Source of the DNA: a bacterium | GTDB lineage: Bacteria > JAHJDO01 | Direction of reading: 5' to 3' | Length of the DNA stretch: 64,000 bases | NCBI GenBank assembly: GCA_030652805.1 | Contig: JAUSPT010000032.1 | Location: 109,992-173,991, forward strand | Shown here: positions 10,667 through 19,395 of the stretch, piece by piece | Layout of the letters: every line of letters starts with the position of its first letter | How positions within the stretch are numbered: the first letter of the stretch is position 1 | Made by a program: the position numbers and the translations under genes | Notes under the pieces: model-generated | What the model was told of the DNA's origin: nothing | The model's database searches: none | The model's input: only the letters and a program-made list of their open reading frames with translations

Positions 10667-12265
10667 TTAGCTCTCTATTTCACATTGAATATAAAAATCT
10701 GCAACTTCCATATCGCGAAGTCTTCGCATGTTAGAAGACTTTAACTGAACATTCTTAAAGTAAGACGACTTTTCCAGTATGTCTATAAGGCCTAATGCAT
10801 CGGATAATGCCTTAGACTGCCCTTTTATTTTAAGAGTATTGTTGAGCTGGTAATCAAGGATTGATAGGGAAATAGTATCAGGAATTATCTTATGTAATTC
10901 ATACAGAATATCTAAACATGAGTTTTTAGTATCTATTTGTTTCTTTATAACACGCAGCCTGTTAGCGCGCTTATTAACTTCTTTAGCAATTGGATCAGTT
11001 TTCCCGATCTCTATATCCAGCCATTTTGATGTATTCTGTTTGTCATAGATGATTCTTGTAGAAATACCTAAAATAAGAAGTAATATACCCGCGCATTGAG
11101 AGGCTAAAACAAGATAATGTTTTCGCTTTTCTCTGACTTGCCTCTGCTTTTTTATTCCATCCGGTAAAACATTAAGCAGAACATTAGGAAAGTTTCTAAT
11201 CAAGCCTATAATTGAACACAAAGAAGTTTCATGTTGATTTGCAATAGAAAATTTTTCTTCCTGCAATGTTAAATTCTCTACAGGATTAAATATTTCCACA
11301 GGCATGTTAAAACTCTTGGACAAATTCTCCACCAGTTTATTATGAACTTTTCCACTTAGAAAAACACTTGTTATCTCTCTATTATCTTTCTTATAAGAAT
11401 TGAGAGATTTTGTTATTTCTTCTAAAAGGAATTCTTGTGTTCTGTTCTCAGATAGAGAAATATTCCTCGTATAAACTAATTTCCCATTAAATATCACTTG
11501 AATATCAACTGAGAACATATCTATATCAATAAGGGCAACTGGTTGATTTATCTCAGGATGTTCTTTGATAAAGGCAGAAGCTGTAGCTTGAGAACTTAAT
11601 TCAATATATTCTGGATTTAATTTCAGATTCCTTAATAACTCAAGCTGCTTGTTTATAACATCTTGATGGACAAGAACTAGCATTACCCTGGAATAGCCAT
11701 CTTTATTGCTTCCTATAACCTTAAAAGCTGTAACAAGTTCCTCCTTAGAATATGGAAGCTGCTTTTCAGCTTGAAATTGCACCATATGTGCTATTTCTCC
11801 TTCACTAATTGACGGCAGATTTAAATATCTGACTGTTACAAGACTTCTCGGAATACAAGCTATAACCTTTTTAGGCTTGATCATCAGATTATTGATTATA
11901 TGCTTAAGTTTCTCTTGCTTTTCATCATTGTTTTTAATCTCTTCTGTTAAAAGAGTTATAATTTTTATCCTGGATTTTCTCCACTCAGAAATACCCTGGA
12001 CAACCTTTATGCTATTTTGGCCTATTTCAATCCCTGTAATTACACGTGTGTTTATTAAATTAGACCATAGAGGATAGATTTCTGACCATAGCGTCTTAGC
12101 TTTTTTCTTCGTGTAAATCCGAAATTCGAATATCGAAATCCGAAACAAATTCAAAATTCTAATTTTAAAAATTCTAAACATTGTTTTGAGCATTTGGATT
12201 TTTGTTATTTGATATTGTTTCGTATTTTGTGCTTCGTGCTTCGAGTTTGATTTTTTAACTTTCAT
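10667..12265 (-). CDS. PilM-PilN fusion protein (functional GspL equivalent); start codon uncertain
   Basis: Actin-like PilM region (ITGIEIGQNSIKVV, ALIDIDMFSVDIQVI), a TM segment (YLVLASQCAGILLLILGI), then a PilN-like periplasmic part. The first ~70 codons translate word repeats (FRIFKIRILNLFRISIFEFRIY) and are probably not coding. Confidence 0.75.
   Translation of the reverse strand: MKVKKSNSKHEAQNTKQYQITKIQMLKTMFRIFKIRILNLFRISIFEFRIYTKKKAKTLWSEIYPLWSNLINTRVITGIEIGQNSIKVVQGISEWRKSRIKIITLLTEEIKNNDEKQEKLKHIINNLMIKPKKVIACIPRSLVTVRYLNLPSISEGEIAHMVQFQAEKQLPYSKEELVTAFKVIGSNKDGYSRVMLVLVHQDVINKQLELLRNLKLNPEYIELSSQATASAFIKEHPEINQPVALIDIDMFSVDIQVIFNGKLVYTRNISLSENRTQEFLLEEITKSLNSYKKDNREITSVFLSGKVHNKLVENLSKSFNMPVEIFNPVENLTLQEEKFSIANQHETSLCSIIGLIRNFPNVLLNVLPDGIKKQRQVREKRKHYLVLASQCAGILLLILGISTRIIYDKQNTSKWLDIEIGKTDPIAKEVNKRANRLRVIKKQIDTKNSCLDILYELHKIIPDTISLSILDYQLNNTLKIKGQSKALSDALGLIDILEKSSYFKNVQLKSSNMRRLRDMEVADFYIQCEIES
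12114..12242. repeat. Cluster of short direct 'word' repeats at the gspK/pilMN junction
   Basis: AAATCCGAAA at 12115 and 12136. AAAATTCTA at 12153 and 12168. Tandem heptamer GTGCTTC at 12229 and 12236. Contains the ATTCGAAT palindrome. Confidence 0.7.
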
Positions 12266-13265
12266 GCCAGTATTCTATCTTTATATTATTATCTTCTTCT
12301 CTTTGTAAAACAACATCCACTTTTTTTGCAAGCTTACTATTATTTAACACACTTGTCACATTTGCTGTAAAAACACTTGAACATACTGTTAAATATTCTG
12401 TTTGTATGAGAGCAGTTAATATTTGCCTTTGTTCAGATGTTAATTGTTGATAATTATTTAAATTCGGGATAATACTCTCAAGTGTCTTGAAAGAATATAA
12501 ATCCTCCTCTCCGCCATCCTGCCCTCTGTAGTCCAAGATTTGCTGCGTGAGCGTATCATCCATTCCCAAAGCAGCAAAGACTTCCTTTCCAGCAGTGTTT
12601 ATATTAATCTTCCCATCTCCATAAATTGTGATATATGGTTTTAGCTTTTTAAATATCTCAGCCGTAATTCCCCTTATCAAATACATCTCCTCTAAACACT
12701 CAATTAAATCGTTTTTACAATTATAAGGTACACTTAACCCCTGATAGAAATCTTCTTCTCCATCTCCTAAAGAATCTGAATCAAGCCAGTCAACAATATA
12801 GTCTGCAATTACTGTATCTATATCAACTATCTCAAGAAGTTTTTTTATCTGGCTTAATCTAACTCCATCAACAACACCGTCTTTGACAAGTTTGTTAATA
12901 TTAAGCCTTCTCTCCTCGTCAATCATCCCATATACGCTAGTCATGTCTTTATTATCATCTTCAATCTGATAACTAACTGTAAATGTGCCATCTCCTACAC
13001 CTGCATTCTTAAATGCTTCTGGATTATTACTCCATGAATCATTAAGAGAGTCGTATATATATTCTTCCTCTGCTTTATCTCTATTTAGTTCATAACAGGC
13101 TCTCTTGATACCTGCCTTACATATATATAAGTTCTTGAGACTGCTGATATGATACTCAGTAAGCTTTATACCAACAGCTGTGTGATGGGCAAAACTAATT
13201 GCTAAAAGAGAAAGAATAGCTAAAATCCACAAGGTTATGATTAGGATAGAACCACGCCTATTCAT
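12255..13265 (-). CDS. gspK: GspK-like minor pseudopilin
   Basis: The N-terminus RGSILIITLWILAILSLLAI lacks the +5 Glu, as expected for GspK. HhH-like ININTAGKEVFAALG near the C-terminus. 336 aa. Sits after the J-like gene. Confidence 0.8.
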   Translation of the reverse strand: MNRRGSILIITLWILAILSLLAISFAHHTAVGIKLTEYHISSLKNLYICKAGIKRACYELNRDKAEEEYIYDSLNDSWSNNPEAFKNAGVGDGTFTVSYQIEDDNKDMTSVYGMIDEERRLNINKLVKDGVVDGVRLSQIKKLLEIVDIDTVIADYIVDWLDSDSLGDGEEDFYQGLSVPYNCKNDLIECLEEMYLIRGITAEIFKKLKPYITIYGDGKININTAGKEVFAALGMDDTLTQQILDYRGQDGGEEDLYSFKTLESIIPNLNNYQQLTSEQRQILTALIQTEYLTVCSSVFTANVTSVLNNSKLAKKVDVVLQREEDNNIKIEYWHES

Positions 13266-13818
13266 ACGTTATCCCTGTATCAAATATTGGAATTTCTGTT
13301 ATTGCCTCAAGAATATTATCCTCTTTACTCCTAATTGACAATTTCACTGCATATGGCAGGCTGCCTTCTTCCCATGAATCTTTCCATTCTTTCTCTACAT
13401 CACAATAAGAAAAAATTAGTTCTTGAATGCCAGAAACCAGCTCCCTTTTCTTGTTTTGTCCTCTTAAACTCTCAGGATATGTCTGGGCATCTCTCATTAT
13501 GTTACCGCTATCCAAATAATAGCTAACTTTATAGATCTGAGTTATTAGATCCTTATCTTGATACACATCCCTTATCACGGGCATTGAAATATTGTGCTTT
13601 TCTCCCTCAAACTTAATCTCAGAAAACCTAGTCACGTTTCTCAGGTCTTTTGTCATCCTATTAAGTGCCATTTGCGAAGATTCAGGGAAACGTGTTTTCG
13701 CATCACCTTCATTCCATACCTTGATGCCTGAATACAAAGTGCTGTATACTGCGCTGACAATTACAGCAAAAATCAGAATTGCAATTAACAATTCCAATAA
13801 TGTGAACCCTTTTCTCAT
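13258..13818 (-). CDS. GspJ-like minor pseudopilin (prepilin-type N-terminal cleavage/methylation domain)
   Basis: MRKG/FTLLELLIAILIF with Glu at +5. 186 aa. Confidence 0.8.
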   Translation of the reverse strand: MRKGFTLLELLIAILIFAVIVSAVYSTLYSGIKVWNEGDAKTRFPESSQMALNRMTKDLRNVTRFSEIKFEGEKHNISMPVIRDVYQDKDLITQIYKVSYYLDSGNIMRDAQTYPESLRGQNKKRELVSGIQELIFSYCDVEKEWKDSWEEGSLPYAVKLSIRSKEDNILEAITEIPIFDTGITYE

Positions 13819-14165
13819 TCTTCAGTCTCTCTTTCAAGATACGTCACCAGAGTTAATTTCTTTTCAATATTATTCTGATCCCATGACACGCTCAATACGG
13901 CTTCACTCAGGTCAGTATCTTCAATAACATTTGTATCCAGTTTCCATCTGTATTTCTCATCTTCTCCATGTGTATCTTCTAATCCATTTTCTATATCCCA
14001 CATCTTTCTTTCTAAATAAAAGCCGGCATCTACGTAATTTACAATTGCTCTTGTCCCATTCAAACAGCTAACAAATGAATGTATGATGATTACTAAACCA
14101 AGAGATAAAACAGCTACTGTTATCATTACCTCAAAAAGAAGAAAACCCTTTGAATATCTTGACAT
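13815..14165 (-). CDS. GspI-like minor pseudopilin
   Basis: SKG/FLLFEVMITVAVL with Glu at +5. 116 aa. Confidence 0.75.
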   Translation of the reverse strand: MSRYSKGFLLFEVMITVAVLSLGLVIIIHSFVSCLNGTRAIVNYVDAGFYLERKMWDIENGLEDTHGEDEKYRWKLDTNVIEDTDLSEAVLSVSWDQNNIEKKLTLVTYLERETEE

Positions 14166-14610
14166 AACCTGTGGTCTCTTTATTGGTTAAAGTATAAACT
14201 TCGCCATCTGCGCCTGATAAATGTATTGTTAATTCATCAGCTCTTCCATCTTGATAAAATACTGCATACGGTTTAGCACACTCCAGAAGTATGTTGGTGG
14301 AGAACCTCCTTTTTCTACCAAGCTTGTTATTTAGTGCAATAAATTTTTCTGGATTTAAGGGGTCTTTTGCTACACTGACCCAGTATTCTTTATTATTAAC
14401 ATCAAAATCTATCCTGTGAATTACCTGCTCCATAATTGCTCTCTCCTGCACATACTTAGTGAGCTTCGATATATCCCGACACAGGTTCCTAACCTGCAAA
14501 TTATCAAAAGTATGTCTAAACAAAGGAGTAGATATTGCTGTAAGGATACTGAGTATGCTAATAACTAGAATCAACTCAATAAAGGTAAACCCTTTCTCCC
14601 GCATCTTCAT
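14131..14610 (-). CDS. GspH-like minor pseudopilin
   Basis: MKMREKG/FTFIELILVISIL. I place the start at 14610 because ATGA overlaps the gspG stop (14607-14609). The track ORF extends to 14634. Confidence 0.78.
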   Translation of the reverse strand: MKMREKGFTFIELILVISILSILTAISTPLFRHTFDNLQVRNLCRDISKLTKYVQERAIMEQVIHRIDFDVNNKEYWVSVAKDPLNPEKFIALNNKLGRKRRFSTNILLECAKPYAVFYQDGRADELTIHLSGADGEVYTLTNKETTGYVKIFKGFSSF

Positions 14611-15017
14611 TCGTTTGACGCACTCTCTTCCCAATTAGTAATATCATCCCCTCCGCCAACTACTCCGTCCGGTCCACAGGAGAAGAGGTCATAATCATCG
14701 CCATGCTCTCCAGGACACTTGTACTGATATGAACTACCCCATGGATCCGCTGGCATTTTTTTCTTAATATAAGGTCCCTTCCATGTCTCAAGCTCTGAAG
14801 GTTTCTCACGTAATGCATTAAGCCCCTCTTCAGACGTAGGATATCTACCATTATCCAGTTCAAATAGCTCCAAGGCTACTGCAATATTTGCTTCAATATC
14901 TGCCTTCGCCGCTATAATCTTTGCCTGTTTGGACCTGCCTGCAAACCTTGGAGCCACCATTGCAATAAGCACACCAATAATAATAACAACAAGCATAAGC
15001 TCTATCAGAGTGAAACC

Positions 15018-15032
15018 ATGTATTTTCTGTGC
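15018..15032. repeat. Left inverted repeat of the IS (terminal)
   Basis: atgtattttctgtgc matches the reverse complement of 16419-16432 (atgattttctatgc): 13 matches, 1 mismatch, 1 indel. Confidence 0.6.
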
Positions 15033-15092
15033 TAGGATTGAAGAACGAAAACGATAAACAGGTAATTTAACCTTAAAACAGGAGGAAAAGGA

Positions 15093-16181
15093 ATGGATAC
15101 AATTACGTATGCTGGTGTGGATCTTCATAAAGATTCGATGACTATTGCTGTAACTAATTCTCTTTCTAACGACCCTTACAACGAAGCGAAGATTACTAAA
15201 ATTCACTGTAAATGCGTTAACAAAGTCTCTGCCTTTTTTGCTGATCTTCCTCATCCATGTACAGTTGCTGTTGAGGCTGTTGGCTTCTACCACTGGTTCT
15301 GGGATCTGGTCAGTCCTCTTGCCTCTGATATCTATCTCCTGAATGCTGTTGAAGTCAGACGTTACGCAGGCAGGGACCCTAAGACTGACTCCAGAGATGC
15401 CAGACTTATTGCGCGGCTTCTTGCTTCCAACGAAATTACTCATAATAGCAAGCTCTCTGTCTTTGTCCCCGACAATAACCTCAGACCTATCAGAGAACTT
15501 GCTCGCCATCGTCATCAAACTGCCCGTTCCCTTGCTTGCTCTAAAAATAGATTCAGACGTATCACTCTCAAAGAAAACCTTCCAGGACCAAAAACTCTTG
15601 ACGCTCATCATGCTCTTCGCTGGATCAGAGGCTTTGAAAACAAAACTTCTGATATCCATAAATTTCAGCTTAGACAGCTTACTGATCAAATAATTTCTTT
15701 TGAAAGAGATGTATCTGATATTGAAAGACAAATCCTTGACCTTACTAATAAAGCTGGTTATCAACCTCTTATGAAACTCCTTCAAACAATCCCAGGTATT
15801 GGTGATGTAGTTGCGTATACTATTATTGCAGAGATCGGCGATTTCTCCAGATTTCAAACTGCTGGACAAATCGCCTCTTTTGCAGGTCTTACTCCCAGAG
15901 TCTTTCAAAGTGGTGATTCCTGCAGGCATGGCAGTATTAATAAACAAGGACCTCCTAATCTTAGATGGGTTCTTCAGCAATCTGCATGGGTGGCTATTAG
16001 ACACAGCGAATTTATTAGAAAAATATTTAATAAAATTAGCAGGAAAGCCGGTAAGAAAAAGGCCGCTTGCGCTATTGCCAGAAAAATTCTTGTCTGGAGC
16101 TGGGCTATGGCTAAGAACAATACGGCTTTTAATAAAGACTTTATTAATAAAGATAAAGAAAAAACGGAAAGGGCAGCTTAA
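15093..16181 (+). CDS. IS110-family DEDD transposase/recombinase
   Basis: The N-terminus YAGVDLHKDSMTIAV is the DEDD_Tnp_IS110 type. The C-terminus LLQTIPGIGDVVAYTIIAEIGDFSRFQTAGQIASFAGLTPRVFQSGDS..GSINKQGPPNLRWVL is the Transposase_20 type. RBS aggagg 8 nt upstream. Confidence 0.92.
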   Translation: MDTITYAGVDLHKDSMTIAVTNSLSNDPYNEAKITKIHCKCVNKVSAFFADLPHPCTVAVEAVGFYHWFWDLVSPLASDIYLLNAVEVRRYAGRDPKTDSRDARLIARLLASNEITHNSKLSVFVPDNNLRPIRELARHRHQTARSLACSKNRFRRITLKENLPGPKTLDAHHALRWIRGFENKTSDIHKFQLRQLTDQIISFERDVSDIERQILDLTNKAGYQPLMKLLQTIPGIGDVVAYTIIAEIGDFSRFQTAGQIASFAGLTPRVFQSGDSCRHGSINKQGPPNLRWVLQQSAWVAIRHSEFIRKIFNKISRKAGKKKAACAIARKILVWSWAMAKNNTAFNKDFINKDKEKTERAA

Positions 16182-16442
16182 TAATGAAAATATTTCATAC
16201 TCTCTAGGATTACACCTGCAGCAGTGACCTTGAATTCGTTTATGAGTAAAAGGCTCAAGCCGTAAAGCTCGATAGCGTGAATAAGGCCTGCTGCAGGCGT
16301 ATTTGTTCTCGTGCGGCTCTTGACCGCGAATAGTTGATTGCGACCTTTGAGAGGTTTTGAGAATATGAAATACTACATTAAAAAGCTGTGAAATTGTTAT
16401 GTGAAAGTTTTTAAATACGCATAGAAAATCATAGTTAAACCC
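16182..16442 (+). ncRNA. Candidate IS-encoded guide RNA (bridge RNA / seekRNA) in the 3' non-coding end
   Basis: 261 nt of non-coding DNA lie after the transposase, against 75 nt before it. Long-range helix CCTGCAGCAG (16215-24) / CTGCTGCAGG (16288-97). GTGAAA occurs at 16388 and 16401, and GTGAAAgTTTTT resembles the target GTGAAAccTTTTTTT. Not folded or aligned. Confidence 0.3.
16419..16432. repeat. Right inverted repeat of the IS (subterminal, 8 nt from the CC core)
   Basis: gcatagaaaatcat is the reverse-complement partner of 15018-15032. Subterminal IRs are a described trait of the IS1111 subgroup. Confidence 0.6.
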
Positions 16443-16486
16443 TTTTTTTGACATTTGAACTTTGATTTTTGACATTTATTTTCCTC

Positions 16487-17698
16487 CTAGTGTATTAAAA
16501 TATTTATTTGAAATATTGGTAAAAGCATACTTATTACTATAAACCCTACAATAGACCCCATAATAAGGATCATTGCAGGTTCCAGTAATGAAGTTAAGGT
16601 CTTTGTTGCTCTATCAACCTGGCGAGCATATGTATCAGATATTTTCAATAAAGACTTCTCTAATGCCCCACCTTCCTCTCCAACAGCAATCATGTTTGTT
16701 GCAAAAACAGGAATCCACAGTCCTCTCCCAAGGCTGGCTGCAAGTTTATTGCCTTCTGAGACATCTTTAGCAGCTCTTTCTATCTCTCCGGATATAGCCC
16801 TATTAGTAATAGTATTCTTTACTATGTTCAGAGACTGCAGAATCGGTACTCCATTTTCAAGTAGGGTTGCAAGAGTTCTAGAAAAACGGCTTACTTCAAC
16901 CTTTTGAATAAGCTTACCGACCAGAGGAATTGCAAGCTTCCACCTGTCAATTACGAGACCTCCTTCTTTTGTATTCTTTAACCGTTTAAAAAGAATTATA
17001 ATTAGGAATATAACCGCGACGGGCACCCACCAGAATTCAACAATGAAATTACTTGAAGACACTAAAATCTGGGTTGGTAAAGGCAGTCTTTGTCCCATAT
17101 CTTCAAACATAACCACCAATTTAGGAATTACAAATGTCAAAAGCACTATAATCGTGCCTATTCCGGCAAAAAACATAAGTATAGGATAGGTGAGAGCCGC
17201 TTTTATCTTTGATTTTATTTCCTCTTCGCTCTCATAAAAATCCGCAAGTCTCAATAGAACGCTCTCTAATATCCCCCCTGTCTCGCCGGAAGCAACCATA
17301 TTAACATAAAGTGGAGAAAAGAGCTTTGGATATTGATCTAAGGATTCAGATAAGCTCTTGCCATCCTTAATATCAGTGTATATTTCATCCAGAACGGCGC
17401 TGAGAAGCGTATTGTCTGCTTGTTTAGATAATATGGCTATCGATTCTAAGAGAGGAACCCCAGCATCCAATAAATCTGATAATTGTCTGGTGAATAAACT
17501 AATATGCTTTAAACCGATACGCTGAAAAATTCCAAGGCTGGACTTAAAGCCTTTTTTCTCTTTACCTGCACCTATAGACAAGACAAAATAGCCCATTTTA
17601 TCCAGTCTGCTTAATGCAATGTCCTGATTTTCTGCTTCAATGACTCCTGATATTATTTTTTTAGGACCATGTTTCGCTTTGTATGAGAAAACAGGCAT
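16487..17698 (-). CDS. gspF: Type II secretion / type IV pilus platform protein GspF/PilC
   Basis: 403 aa, duplicated T2SSF domains (SLFTRQLSDLLDAGVPLLESI and FSRTLATLLENGVPILQSL), three TM segments. Confidence 0.92.
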   Translation of the reverse strand: MPVFSYKAKHGPKKIISGVIEAENQDIALSRLDKMGYFVLSIGAGKEKKGFKSSLGIFQRIGLKHISLFTRQLSDLLDAGVPLLESIAILSKQADNTLLSAVLDEIYTDIKDGKSLSESLDQYPKLFSPLYVNMVASGETGGILESVLLRLADFYESEEEIKSKIKAALTYPILMFFAGIGTIIVLLTFVIPKLVVMFEDMGQRLPLPTQILVSSSNFIVEFWWVPVAVIFLIIILFKRLKNTKEGGLVIDRWKLAIPLVGKLIQKVEVSRFSRTLATLLENGVPILQSLNIVKNTITNRAISGEIERAAKDVSEGNKLAASLGRGLWIPVFATNMIAVGEEGGALEKSLLKISDTYARQVDRATKTLTSLLEPAMILIMGSIVGFIVISMLLPIFQINILIH

Positions 17699-17700
17699 CG

Positions 17701-19395
17701 CTATTTCTCCTCTTGCTGCGTTACTCGAAGAACTTCTTCAATAGTAGTAATTCCCTTACAAACCTTGCCCAATCCATCCTGACGCAAAGTCTTCATTCCC
17801 TGAGAAATAGCCTTGTCTCTGATTATATTAGCTGATACCCGCTTTACTATAAGTTCACGGATTTCATCATTAATTACCAGCATCTCATGTATTGCAGTCC
17901 TACCTTTGAACCCTGTAAATCTACACTTCTCGCATCCTTTTCCCATGAATATTTTTGTTTCCTGTGGTATTCCCAAACTTTTTTTCTGTATAGTAGAATT
18001 TTTTACGATCTCTTTGCAATCCTCGCATATAACTCTCAGGAGTCTTTGCGCTATCACACACTCAAGAGATGATGCCAATAAATATGCCTCTATTCCCATG
18101 TCAAGAAGCCTTGTCATAGCTCCTGCAGCATCATTTGTGTGCAGTGTAGAGAAAACAAGGTGTCCTGTAAGAGCTGTTCGTATTGTTGTTTCAGCTGTCT
18201 CAAAATCCCGTATCTCTCCTACCATCATAATGTCAGGATCATGACGAAGCATTGAACGCAGGCCTCTAGCAAACGTTAGATCTATTTTTGGTAACACTTG
18301 AATCTGAGAAATCCCCCTTAACTGATACTCAATTGGGTCTTCTATTGTAACTATTTTTTTCTCACTATCGTTTATTTCGCTTAAACATGCATACAATGTT
18401 GTAGTCTTTCCACTCCCTGTAGGCCCTGTCAGGAGAATTATTCCATGTGGCTTATGTATCACAGATTTCAAAATTTCGAGATGTCCTGAAGAAAGACCCA
18501 AGACATCCAATCCCAGAAAAACATTGCTGGATAGTAACCTCATATTCACACTTTCCCCAAAAGACGTCGGAAGAACTGATATTCTTAAATCCAGCTCAGC
18601 ATTTCCTATCTTTACTTTTATTCTTCCATCCTGAGGCATACGTCTTTCAGCTATGTTGAGAGAGGACATTATTTTTATTCTGGAAACCAGAGCCTCTCGA
18701 AAGTGCTTAATAGATTTAGGCACCTTTGCGTCATGCAGTATGCCATCAATACGGTATCTTATACGCAACTCGTCTTCATATGGTTCTATATGAATGTCAG
18801 TAGCTCTATCTCTGTATGCTTCTAAAAGTATCTGATTAACAAACTTTATTATAGAAGCATCTGCAGCTAGCTCTTCTATATTATCAACAGAAGGCTCCAC
18901 CATTTTTATTGCCTCCGTTTGAGAGGTTTGCTTCATCATTTCCTCTATAGTTTCAGCGCCAATGCCATAATATTTTTTTAAACCCTTCATAATATCTAAC
19001 TCACCGGCAAGCATTGGTTTGATCTTATAGCCAAGAAGTAATGTTAAATCATCTATAAACTCAAGATTTGACGGATCAGTTAATGCAACAGTTAACACCT
19101 TCCCTTCCAATTTGATAGGAATCAGCTCATAGTGGCATGCAAACTTTGCAGGAACCTTTTTTATTACATCCGGGGGAATAGTAAGCTTCTTTATCTGAAT
19201 ATATGAAATATTTAGTTTCTTGGATAAAAGAGGCAAAACTTCTTCTTCGGAAGCGATTCCCATTTTAACAACTGTGCGGCCAAGGAATTCTCCCATCTTC
19301 TGATGCTGCGATAAAGCCTGCTCTAGTTGCTTATCTGAGATAATATCATTTGCAACAAGCAGCTCACCTAAACGCAAATTTTCTTTAAAAAGCAT
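17701..19395 (-). CDS. gspE: GspE/PilB-family secretion ATPase with N-terminal MshEN/T2SSE_N domain
   Basis: Walker A LLTGPTGSGKTTT, Asp box, Walker B IMMVGEIRD, His box TGHLVFSTLHTND, and the tetracysteine CEDC..CEKC. Confidence 0.93.
   Translation of the reverse strand: MLFKENLRLGELLVANDIISDKQLEQALSQHQKMGEFLGRTVVKMGIASEEEVLPLLSKKLNISYIQIKKLTIPPDVIKKVPAKFACHYELIPIKLEGKVLTVALTDPSNLEFIDDLTLLLGYKIKPMLAGELDIMKGLKKYYGIGAETIEEMMKQTSQTEAIKMVEPSVDNIEELAADASIIKFVNQILLEAYRDRATDIHIEPYEDELRIRYRIDGILHDAKVPKSIKHFREALVSRIKIMSSLNIAERRMPQDGRIKVKIGNAELDLRISVLPTSFGESVNMRLLSSNVFLGLDVLGLSSGHLEILKSVIHKPHGIILLTGPTGSGKTTTLYACLSEINDSEKKIVTIEDPIEYQLRGISQIQVLPKIDLTFARGLRSMLRHDPDIMMVGEIRDFETAETTIRTALTGHLVFSTLHTNDAAGAMTRLLDMGIEAYLLASSLECVIAQRLLRVICEDCKEIVKNSTIQKKSLGIPQETKIFMGKGCEKCRFTGFKGRTAIHEMLVINDEIRELIVKRVSANIIRDKAISQGMKTLRQDGLGKVCKGITTIEEVLRVTQQEEK

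Follow-up and report, generated by a model that had tools for sequence, protein, structure and literature searches.

A candidate bridge/seek guide RNA in the 3' end of an IS1111-type insertion sequence at the prepilin cleavage junction of gspG

The window, by which the whole 64-kb stretch of DNA analysed is meant, carries a type II secretion or pilus cluster on the minus strand (12255-19395). Upstream of gspG lie gspF and gspE, giving a gspE-gspF-gspG operon on the minus strand, and gspG itself is interrupted by an insertion sequence (IS) between its Gly(-1) and Phe(+1) codons. When the flanks are rejoined the frame reads MSKIKVQMSKKG|FTLIEL..., with a product matching TIGR01710 (GspG) at 148.6 bits (cutoff 88.85) as well as PF08334 and PF07963. 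The insertion in gspG probably has a polar effect on the downstream pseudopilin genes too. The features of the locus are as follows.

12255-13265, 13258-13818, 13815-14165 and 14131-14634, minus strand: four small prepilin-like genes downstream of the interrupted gspG
14607-15014, minus strand: 3' part of gspG (FTLIELMLVV... to the stop); the rejoined protein matches GspG
15007-15014, plus strand: left target (LT) AGAGTGAA, reverse complement of the Phe-Thr-Leu codons, placed by the flanks of relatives
15015-16439, plus strand: IS1111-type insertion sequence of 1425 bp, ACC ATGTATTTT ... CATAGTTAAA, placed by 3 copies and 60+ relatives
15022-15032, plus strand: left subterminal inverted repeat ATTTTCTGTGC, 10/11 complementary to 16419-29
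15093-16181, plus strand: intact gene of an IS110-family RNA-guided transposase, 362 aa (NF033542, PF01548, PF02371)
16419-16429, plus strand: right subterminal inverted repeat GCATAGAAAAT, pairing with 15022-32 with one mismatch
16430-16439, plus strand: terminal extension CATAGTTAAA, the left donor and right end of the element
16440-16475, minus strand: 5' part of gspG with the leader MSKIKVQMSKKG, placed by the rejoined frame; the right-target triplet, CCC at 16440-42, is a Gly codon
16487-17698, minus strand: gspF-like gene
17701-19395, minus strand: gene of a gspE-like ATPase

The transposase scores 243 bits (cutoff 140) against NF033542, described as "IS110 family RNA-guided transposase". 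It possesses the DEDD (RuvC-like) N-terminal domain and the C-terminal Tnp domain with a GL-P----S/T-G motif of the IS1111 group, and residues D10, E61, D99, D102, S273 and G274 together with GL-P----SG (265-274) are invariant in the transposase alignment (A3). Within the element, 78 nt of non-coding DNA lie 5' of the gene and 258 nt lie 3' of it. The first-pass annotation had counted 75 and 261 nt; the contrast of a short 5' and a long 3' end which it drew holds, but the exact lengths do not, CCC at 16440-42 being flank (the gspG Gly codon) and not part of the IS. Subterminal inverted repeats of 9-13 bp occupy the same place in relatives, as in the IS1111 group, where repeats of 7-17 bp are accompanied by short terminal extensions. 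From these repeats and the lengths of the two non-coding ends, the element is an IS1111-type insertion sequence of the IS110 family.

Its boundaries were set by junction alignment of three close copies and 60+ relatives. Two of the close copies (L001 and L002) come from a public MAG contig and have ~93.5% DNA identity to the window copy; a further 80 relatives, at 38-54% protein identity, were obtained from a metagenome scan. A repeat search of the 64-kb window gave no second copy of the element. The triplet which follows GTGAA on the left is constant in each lineage (ACC in the three close copies; GCC in L041-43 and L035/36/39), while the right triplet differs between sites (CCC, ACC and AGC in the close copies; CGC, AGC and TGC in L041-43). 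The left triplet is therefore part of the element and the right triplet part of the target, which means that insertion occurs without target duplication. Such insertion, specific for both site and orientation, is characteristic of the IS1111 group. The same variation at the right junction removes the "CC" which had been proposed in the first-pass annotation as the core shared by donor and target; the crossover sequence common to both is (T)(G/A)AA. A first boundary guess of our own, with a CC core and a target of GTGAAACC|C, was dropped as relatives show that the right triplet is site-derived.

Two loci (L010 and L017) have the right end joined directly to ACC ATGT, possibly through a circle, a tandem dimer or an assembly effect, and these end-to-end joins agree with the boundaries inferred for 15015-16439. 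If 16435-39 and 15015-38 were joined in this way, they would read TTAAAA (TTGAAA in L001), 17 nt and TAGGAT, a possible junction promoter as judged by eye. A TTGAC(G/A) word was also seen by eye just inside the right end in relatives.

The first-pass annotation took the interrupted sequence to be a conserved prepilin motif, and the relatives bear this out. The same motif in the same orientation, FTL(I/V/L)E(L/F), is encoded by 58 of 63 unique left flanks, which end in GTGAA. On the other side of the element, the leader frame is open in 51 of 52 distinct right flanks (compared with 16 and 23 in the other two frames), and the -1 codon is Gly or Ala in 48 of the 52. The right triplet is N(C/G)C family-wide, the reverse complement of a Gly or Ala -1 codon. 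Given the left-flank motif and the in-frame right leaders, the insertion point of the whole clade, judged by its flanks, is the junction of the two codons which flank the prepilin peptidase cleavage site (G/A|FTLIEL). In the 64-kb window AGNGTGAANSC has one exact match, the occupied site at 15007-15017. An unoccupied near-target with one mismatch to this pattern, AATGTGAACCC at 13799-13809, is found at the start of a neighbouring pseudopilin gene (MRKGFTLLEL, 13258-13818, minus strand).

The long 3' end, suggested by the first-pass annotation to encode a structured RNA of the guide type, was found to contain the following features, all on the plus strand.

16191-16372: whole structured RNA domain of ~180 nt (182 nt), equivalent to a "long" form (z = -4.96)
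16191-99 and 16201-04 with 16359-62 and 16364-72: predicted helix P1, with compensatory changes in the window-like and C clades
16215-16297: P2 arm of 83 nt, a putative target-binding stem-loop by its covariation and size
16215-31 with 16283-97: helix P2a, all 15 pairs changed on both sides, 87-91% of cells paired
16232-16243: 5' strand of the target-binding loop, with a right-target-guide (RTG) candidate UCG UUU at 16236-41
16244-47 with 16267-70: helix P2b, found as GAAC/GTTC, GAGC/GCTC, GGGC/GCCC and GAAT/ATTC among relatives
16271-16282: 3' strand of the target-binding loop, with the left target guide (LTG) AGCGUGAA at 16274-81
16298-16312: junction strand CGUAUUUGUUCUCGU, a right-donor-guide candidate by position only
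16313-16327: hairpin P3, GCGG / CCGC, 98% of cells paired, 3 of 4 pairs changed on both sides
16328-16337: left donor guide (LDG) GAAUAGUUGA, with variable base X at 16334, sense-identical to the right end
16342-16356: hairpin P4, GACCUUUGAGAGGUU, in the window-like and C clades
16387-16412: TGTGAAA N6 TGTGAAA GTTTTT, not part of the guide RNA, being outside the fold and the covariance model match

Folding of the 261-nt stretch 16182-16442, a check which the first-pass annotation had called for, gave -80.2 kcal/mol with a z-score of -5.45, and none of 200 shuffles was as good; for the domain, folded as 188 nt, z was -4.96. Both helices named in that annotation are present and conserved with compensatory changes. 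One, a 10-bp helix of CCTGCAGCAG (16215-24) and CTGCTGCAGG (16288-97), is extended by ACCTT/AAGG to form P2a, and the other, GCGG (16313-16) with CCGC (16324-27), is P3. Between P2a and P2b the P2 arm opens into an internal loop of 12 x 12 nt. RNAalifold, run on 27 and on 56 sequences, recovered P2a and P3 with changes on both sides in 15-17 pairs, and over the alignments of relatives both sides have changed in 22 of 23 pairs. In alignment A5, 89.3% of cells form standard pairs, against 62.8% after shuffling (reached in 0 of 500 shuffles) and 39-45% when the strands are slid by 1-3 columns, and the covariation score is 0.68 against 0.21 shuffled and 0.07-0.17 slid. The pairing result was the same with 76 distinct model-aligned sequences, an alignment which is itself fitted to the model.

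P4 is kept as ACC/GGU, ACCC/GGGU, AACC/GGUU, GCCC/GGGC and CCGC/GCGG in the window-like and C clades, as assessed by eye, a register shift of 1-2 columns remaining in the MAFFT and model alignments; it is absent from the A clade. The P4 loop (16346-52) and the 3' strand of P1 (16356-62) repeat one word (TTTGAGA here, TTCGAGG in the C clade), and the 5' strand of P1 could pair with either TTTGAGA copy, so alternative folds are possible.

A covariance model built from the relatives (R1) has a single match in the 64-kb window, at 16209-16343 on the plus strand (106 bits, E = 9e-32). In the fetched loci it gave 84 matches (E <= 0.001), all on the transposase strand, with the main match of each locus lying after the transposase gene and before the right end. 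The words TAGCGTGAA ... GCGG-loop-CCGC-GAATAG-X-TGA stand 3' of the gene in 68 of 89 loci. Encoding on the transposase strand in the long non-coding end and a covarying secondary structure are both features of bridge and seek RNAs. Only chance-level matches, and no guide RNA family, were obtained from Rfam 15 at a permissive threshold. A search for an internal promoter returned 7 promoter-like sites where 4 +/- 2 are expected, and terminators likewise were not above chance. The first-pass annotation had also named the short 5' end as an alternative home for a guide RNA. This placement, that of IS110/IS621-type elements, has family precedent in its favour, but next to no probability can be given to it here, as the 5' end has just 78 nt, in which the ribosome-binding site and a subterminal repeat are located, folds no better than expected by chance (z = -1.48) and lacks an R1 match, the model matching in the 3' end only.

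The loops of this RNA correspond to the target and donor DNA. In the 3' strand of the target-binding loop, AGCGUGAA (16274-81) is sense-identical to the left target AGNGTGAA and would thus be able to pair with its bottom strand. It contains a third GTGAA word (16277-81), missed by the first-pass annotation, and this is the conserved one, the left target guide being the most conserved word of the RNA. Guide and left target agree at positions -8, -7 and -5 to -1 (7 of 8) in 41-48 of 48 non-redundant pairs. The support for this guide is identity and not covariation, because the left target never varies; agreement of its wobble base with the Thr-codon wobble was not significant (p = 0.07).

On the 5' strand of the same loop, relatives have (G-S-N)-UU-(C/U), a sequence antisense to (G)AA followed by the flank triplet. 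A 5-mer consisting of the reverse complement of the right-target triplet and TT occurs in exact form in 17 of 58 loops, compared with 6.5 when flanks are permuted (p < 5e-5), and in the A clade the triplet is exact in 11 of 34 (4.2 expected; p = 1e-4). The middle base of the right target guide also tracks Gly (NCC) versus Ala (NGC) codons (8/0 versus 6/15; Fisher p = 7e-4). At family level, then, a loop segment covaries with the top strand of the right target as in bridge and seek RNAs, and the covariation between loop and flank which the first-pass annotation had proposed to look for among relatives exists alongside the conserved structure. The order of the two strands is that of IS1111-type RNAs, with the top-strand match (16232-43) 5' of the bottom-strand match (16271-82) and an overlap at GAA/UUC. 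As a side observation, the right ends of close relatives have either A or G at position -3, where the target has G; the base which follows UU in the guide is C solely in elements with G at this place, a pattern, seen in few informative cases, which recalls the "handshake" pairing of IS621.

In the window copy, UCG UUU (16236-41) mismatches its own flank GAA CCC and only the core pairs; the right-target-guide triplets of both 93% copies likewise mismatch their own flanks. It is therefore a real, if lesser, possibility that the RNA is a guide in the family while the window copy is decaying or has been retargeted, its RNA being a relic or working by the left target guide only. The triplet UCG faces CCC in the flank, no other stretch of the three copies, which are otherwise ~93% identical, has diverged as far as the 11-nt 5' loop strand, the right subterminal repeat has its one mismatch, and the right end has A where the left donor guide has G. 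Decay fits poorly, however, with an intact transposase gene in which all catalytic residues are present, and all helices are perfect in this copy. Moreover, an exact match between this guide and the flank occurs in only about a third of copies family-wide, so triplet mismatches seem to be tolerated, and G opposite T would form a wobble pair at the right end. The copy may still be active.

For the donor, the right end CATAG-X-T(G/A)AA has a sense-identical counterpart in GAAUAG-X-UGA (16328-37). The variable base X was equal in the guide and the right end in all 56 non-redundant pairs (A/A 31, C/C 16, T/T 9) and in 59 of 59 in a separate count. One locus (L083) has T in both within a clade which has C in both, and in L002 a further element, distinct from the window-like copy, has AAAG at both. 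This segment thus covaries with the right end, as does the left-donor segment of bridge and seek RNAs, and by the IS621 rule its sense identity implies bottom-strand pairing and hence a left donor guide. No right-donor guide was found by an exact-match scan (sense and antisense) or a mutual-information scan, which recovered only the subterminal repeats and clade effects, and 16298-16312 has no consistent complementarity to the left end.

A different account of these matches would be that the 3' end is a structured untranslated region or a set of DNA sites, in which GCGTGAA and GAATAGTTGA are internal protein-binding copies of the target and the end. A sense-identical guide does resemble a direct repeat of the end at the DNA level, and ISEc11 needs only a short seekRNA, which leaves donor reading by RNA unproven in IS1111 elements. 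We nevertheless regard this account as improbable. The words sit in loops framed by helices which have been kept through dozens of compensatory changes, explicable only by selection at the RNA level; the flank and the 5' loop strand, antisense to one another, covary, which fits pairing and not repeats; and the RNA of homologous elements has been demonstrated experimentally (PMC11187229; PMC11208160).

The first-pass annotation had instead placed the target guide in the second of two GTGAAA words. Both words are present (16388 and 16401), the second followed by GTTTTT, and GTGAAA is not enriched in the window (27 found, 46 expected). In that version, contiguous GTGAAAgTTTTT (16401-12) would mimic the whole target around a CC core. 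The word does resemble GTGAA-CCC-TTTTT and is kept in L001 and L002, but the version is very improbable for several reasons. GTGAAAgTTTTT is found downstream of the folded domain and is not covered by the R1 match; it is confined to the three close copies, with no counterpart in other clades; and it does not covary, as TTTTT is unchanged both in L001 (right flank AAACATG) and in L002 (right flank ACACATT). In known guides one half is read in sense and the other half in antisense, and L002 and about half of the family lack CC at the right junction. The direct repeat at 16387-16406, between the RNA domain and the right inverted repeat, is a local one with GTGAAA copies 13 nt apart; L001 retains it, L002 has lost half of it and other clades lack it.

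On this evidence, we consider with a probability of about 0.85 that the 3' end encodes a bridge/seek RNA which directs the recombinase to the prepilin cleavage junction. Apart from a right-donor guide and the right target guide of this particular copy, the RNA has the features by which an IS1111-type seek or bridge RNA can be recognised from sequence. An RNA of ~180 nt would be made from the transposase strand, probably co-transcribed with the gene, an assumption made because no separate promoter stands out, as for ISEc11. Once bound by the recombinase, the long stem P2 would read the target through its 12 x 12-nt internal loop, the 3' loop strand pairing with the bottom strand of the left target and the 5' loop strand, in relatives, with the top strand of (G)AA and the next triplet. 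The two target matches would overlap at GAA, the presumed place of strand exchange, and after P3 the left donor guide would pair with the bottom strand of the right end, CATAGTT(A/G)AA. Read on the opposite strand, GTGAA-N(C/G)C gives (Gly/Ala)-Phe-Thr codons, and the DEDD/Ser recombinase would therefore be led by an RNA of this kind to the prepilin cleavage junction, in the present case that of gspG.

Among described systems the closest likeness is to the seekRNAs of IS1111 elements ISEc11, ISPa11, ISKpn4 and ISPst6 (Siddiquee et al., 2024; PMC11187229), with published lengths of 82-96 nt for the short and 145-172 nt for the long form. The P2 arm (83 nt) compares with the short form and the domain (182 nt) with the long form. 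Shared features include encoding 3' of the transposase gene, subterminal inverted repeats, and overlapping target matches with the top-strand one 5' of the bottom-strand one (PMC11187229). In addition, (T)GAA adjoins the insertion point here as in ISEc11 (GTG*AAAATACTGT) and ISKpn4 (TTGAA*CG). A right-donor match is not demonstrated for the IS1111 seekRNAs either. The RNA described here differs from them in having a clear match to the right (donor) end in its long form. The closest transposases in a tblastn search against annotated plasmids were <= 32% identical.

The target differs as well, as it is a protein-coding motif and not a REP, attC or other non-coding repeat, published IS1111 targets being REP, attC, transposon ends and the short ISEc11 site. 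The strategy of using a short multi-copy target is the same as in the repeat-targeting IS1111 elements (ISPa11 at REP, ISKpn4 and ISPst6 at attC, IS4321 and IS5075 at Tn21 inverted repeats). However, the multi-copy target is kept here by selection on the prepilin motif, and each insertion inactivates a gene.

With the bridge RNA of IS621 (Durrant et al., 2024, PMC11208160; Hiraizumi et al., 2024, PMC11208158) the present RNA shares two guide-bearing loops, a DEDD and Ser recombinase, left guides for the bottom and right guides for the top strand, and target guides which both cover the crossover bases. In contrast to IS621, the RNA is at the 3' and not the 5' end, the guide order in the target loop is reversed relative to IS110/IS621, the donor guide sits in a multi-helix junction instead of a simple internal loop, no right-donor guide is visible and the crossover bases are (G/A)AA and not CT. 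Two other DEDD recombinases of the same superfamily as the transposase are Piv of Moraxella, an invertase acting on pilin genes, and that of IS492, which switches a gene on and off by precise excision (PMC11208160). Unlike the present element, Piv is no insertion sequence; it acts by inverting a segment within pilin genes. A switching role here is hypothetical.

The mapping of a natural guide RNA of an uncharacterised IS1111 clade, with its helices, target loop, left donor guide, crossover region and boundaries, offers a new scaffold for programmable recombinases. It also indicates that a conserved coding motif can serve IS elements as a multi-copy landing site, which would explain recurrent disruption of prepilin-like genes in environmental bacteria. 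For annotation, a truncated "FTLIEL" gene beside an IS110-family transposase should be taken as a warning of an insertion event. A bolder reading, which we hold only tentatively and consider rather doubtful, is that a widespread, undescribed IS1111-type clade is programmed against the prepilin leader-peptidase cleavage/methylation site, with a right target guide that tells Gly from Ala at -1, and that its members might be reversible off/on switches of individual pilin and pseudopilin genes (in the present case gspG, in a type II secretion operon), an idea suggested by the precise excision in the family. If this is true, such elements would do more than parasitise a multi-copy target. In the literature searched, the prepilin motif was not found reported as an IS target; the search was incomplete and hence no proof of novelty.

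Tandem arrangements were also observed in the relatives. In L002, two different members of the clade stand head to tail (6-1490 and 1491-2915), the window-like copy being inserted exactly at the right terminus (..AAAGATGAA) of the other element, which has its own transposase gene and its own guide RNA (model match 1217-1397, 46 bits). In this tandem the right end of an element mimics the GTGAA of the target, and the left flank of L086 apparently presents the same head-to-tail situation.
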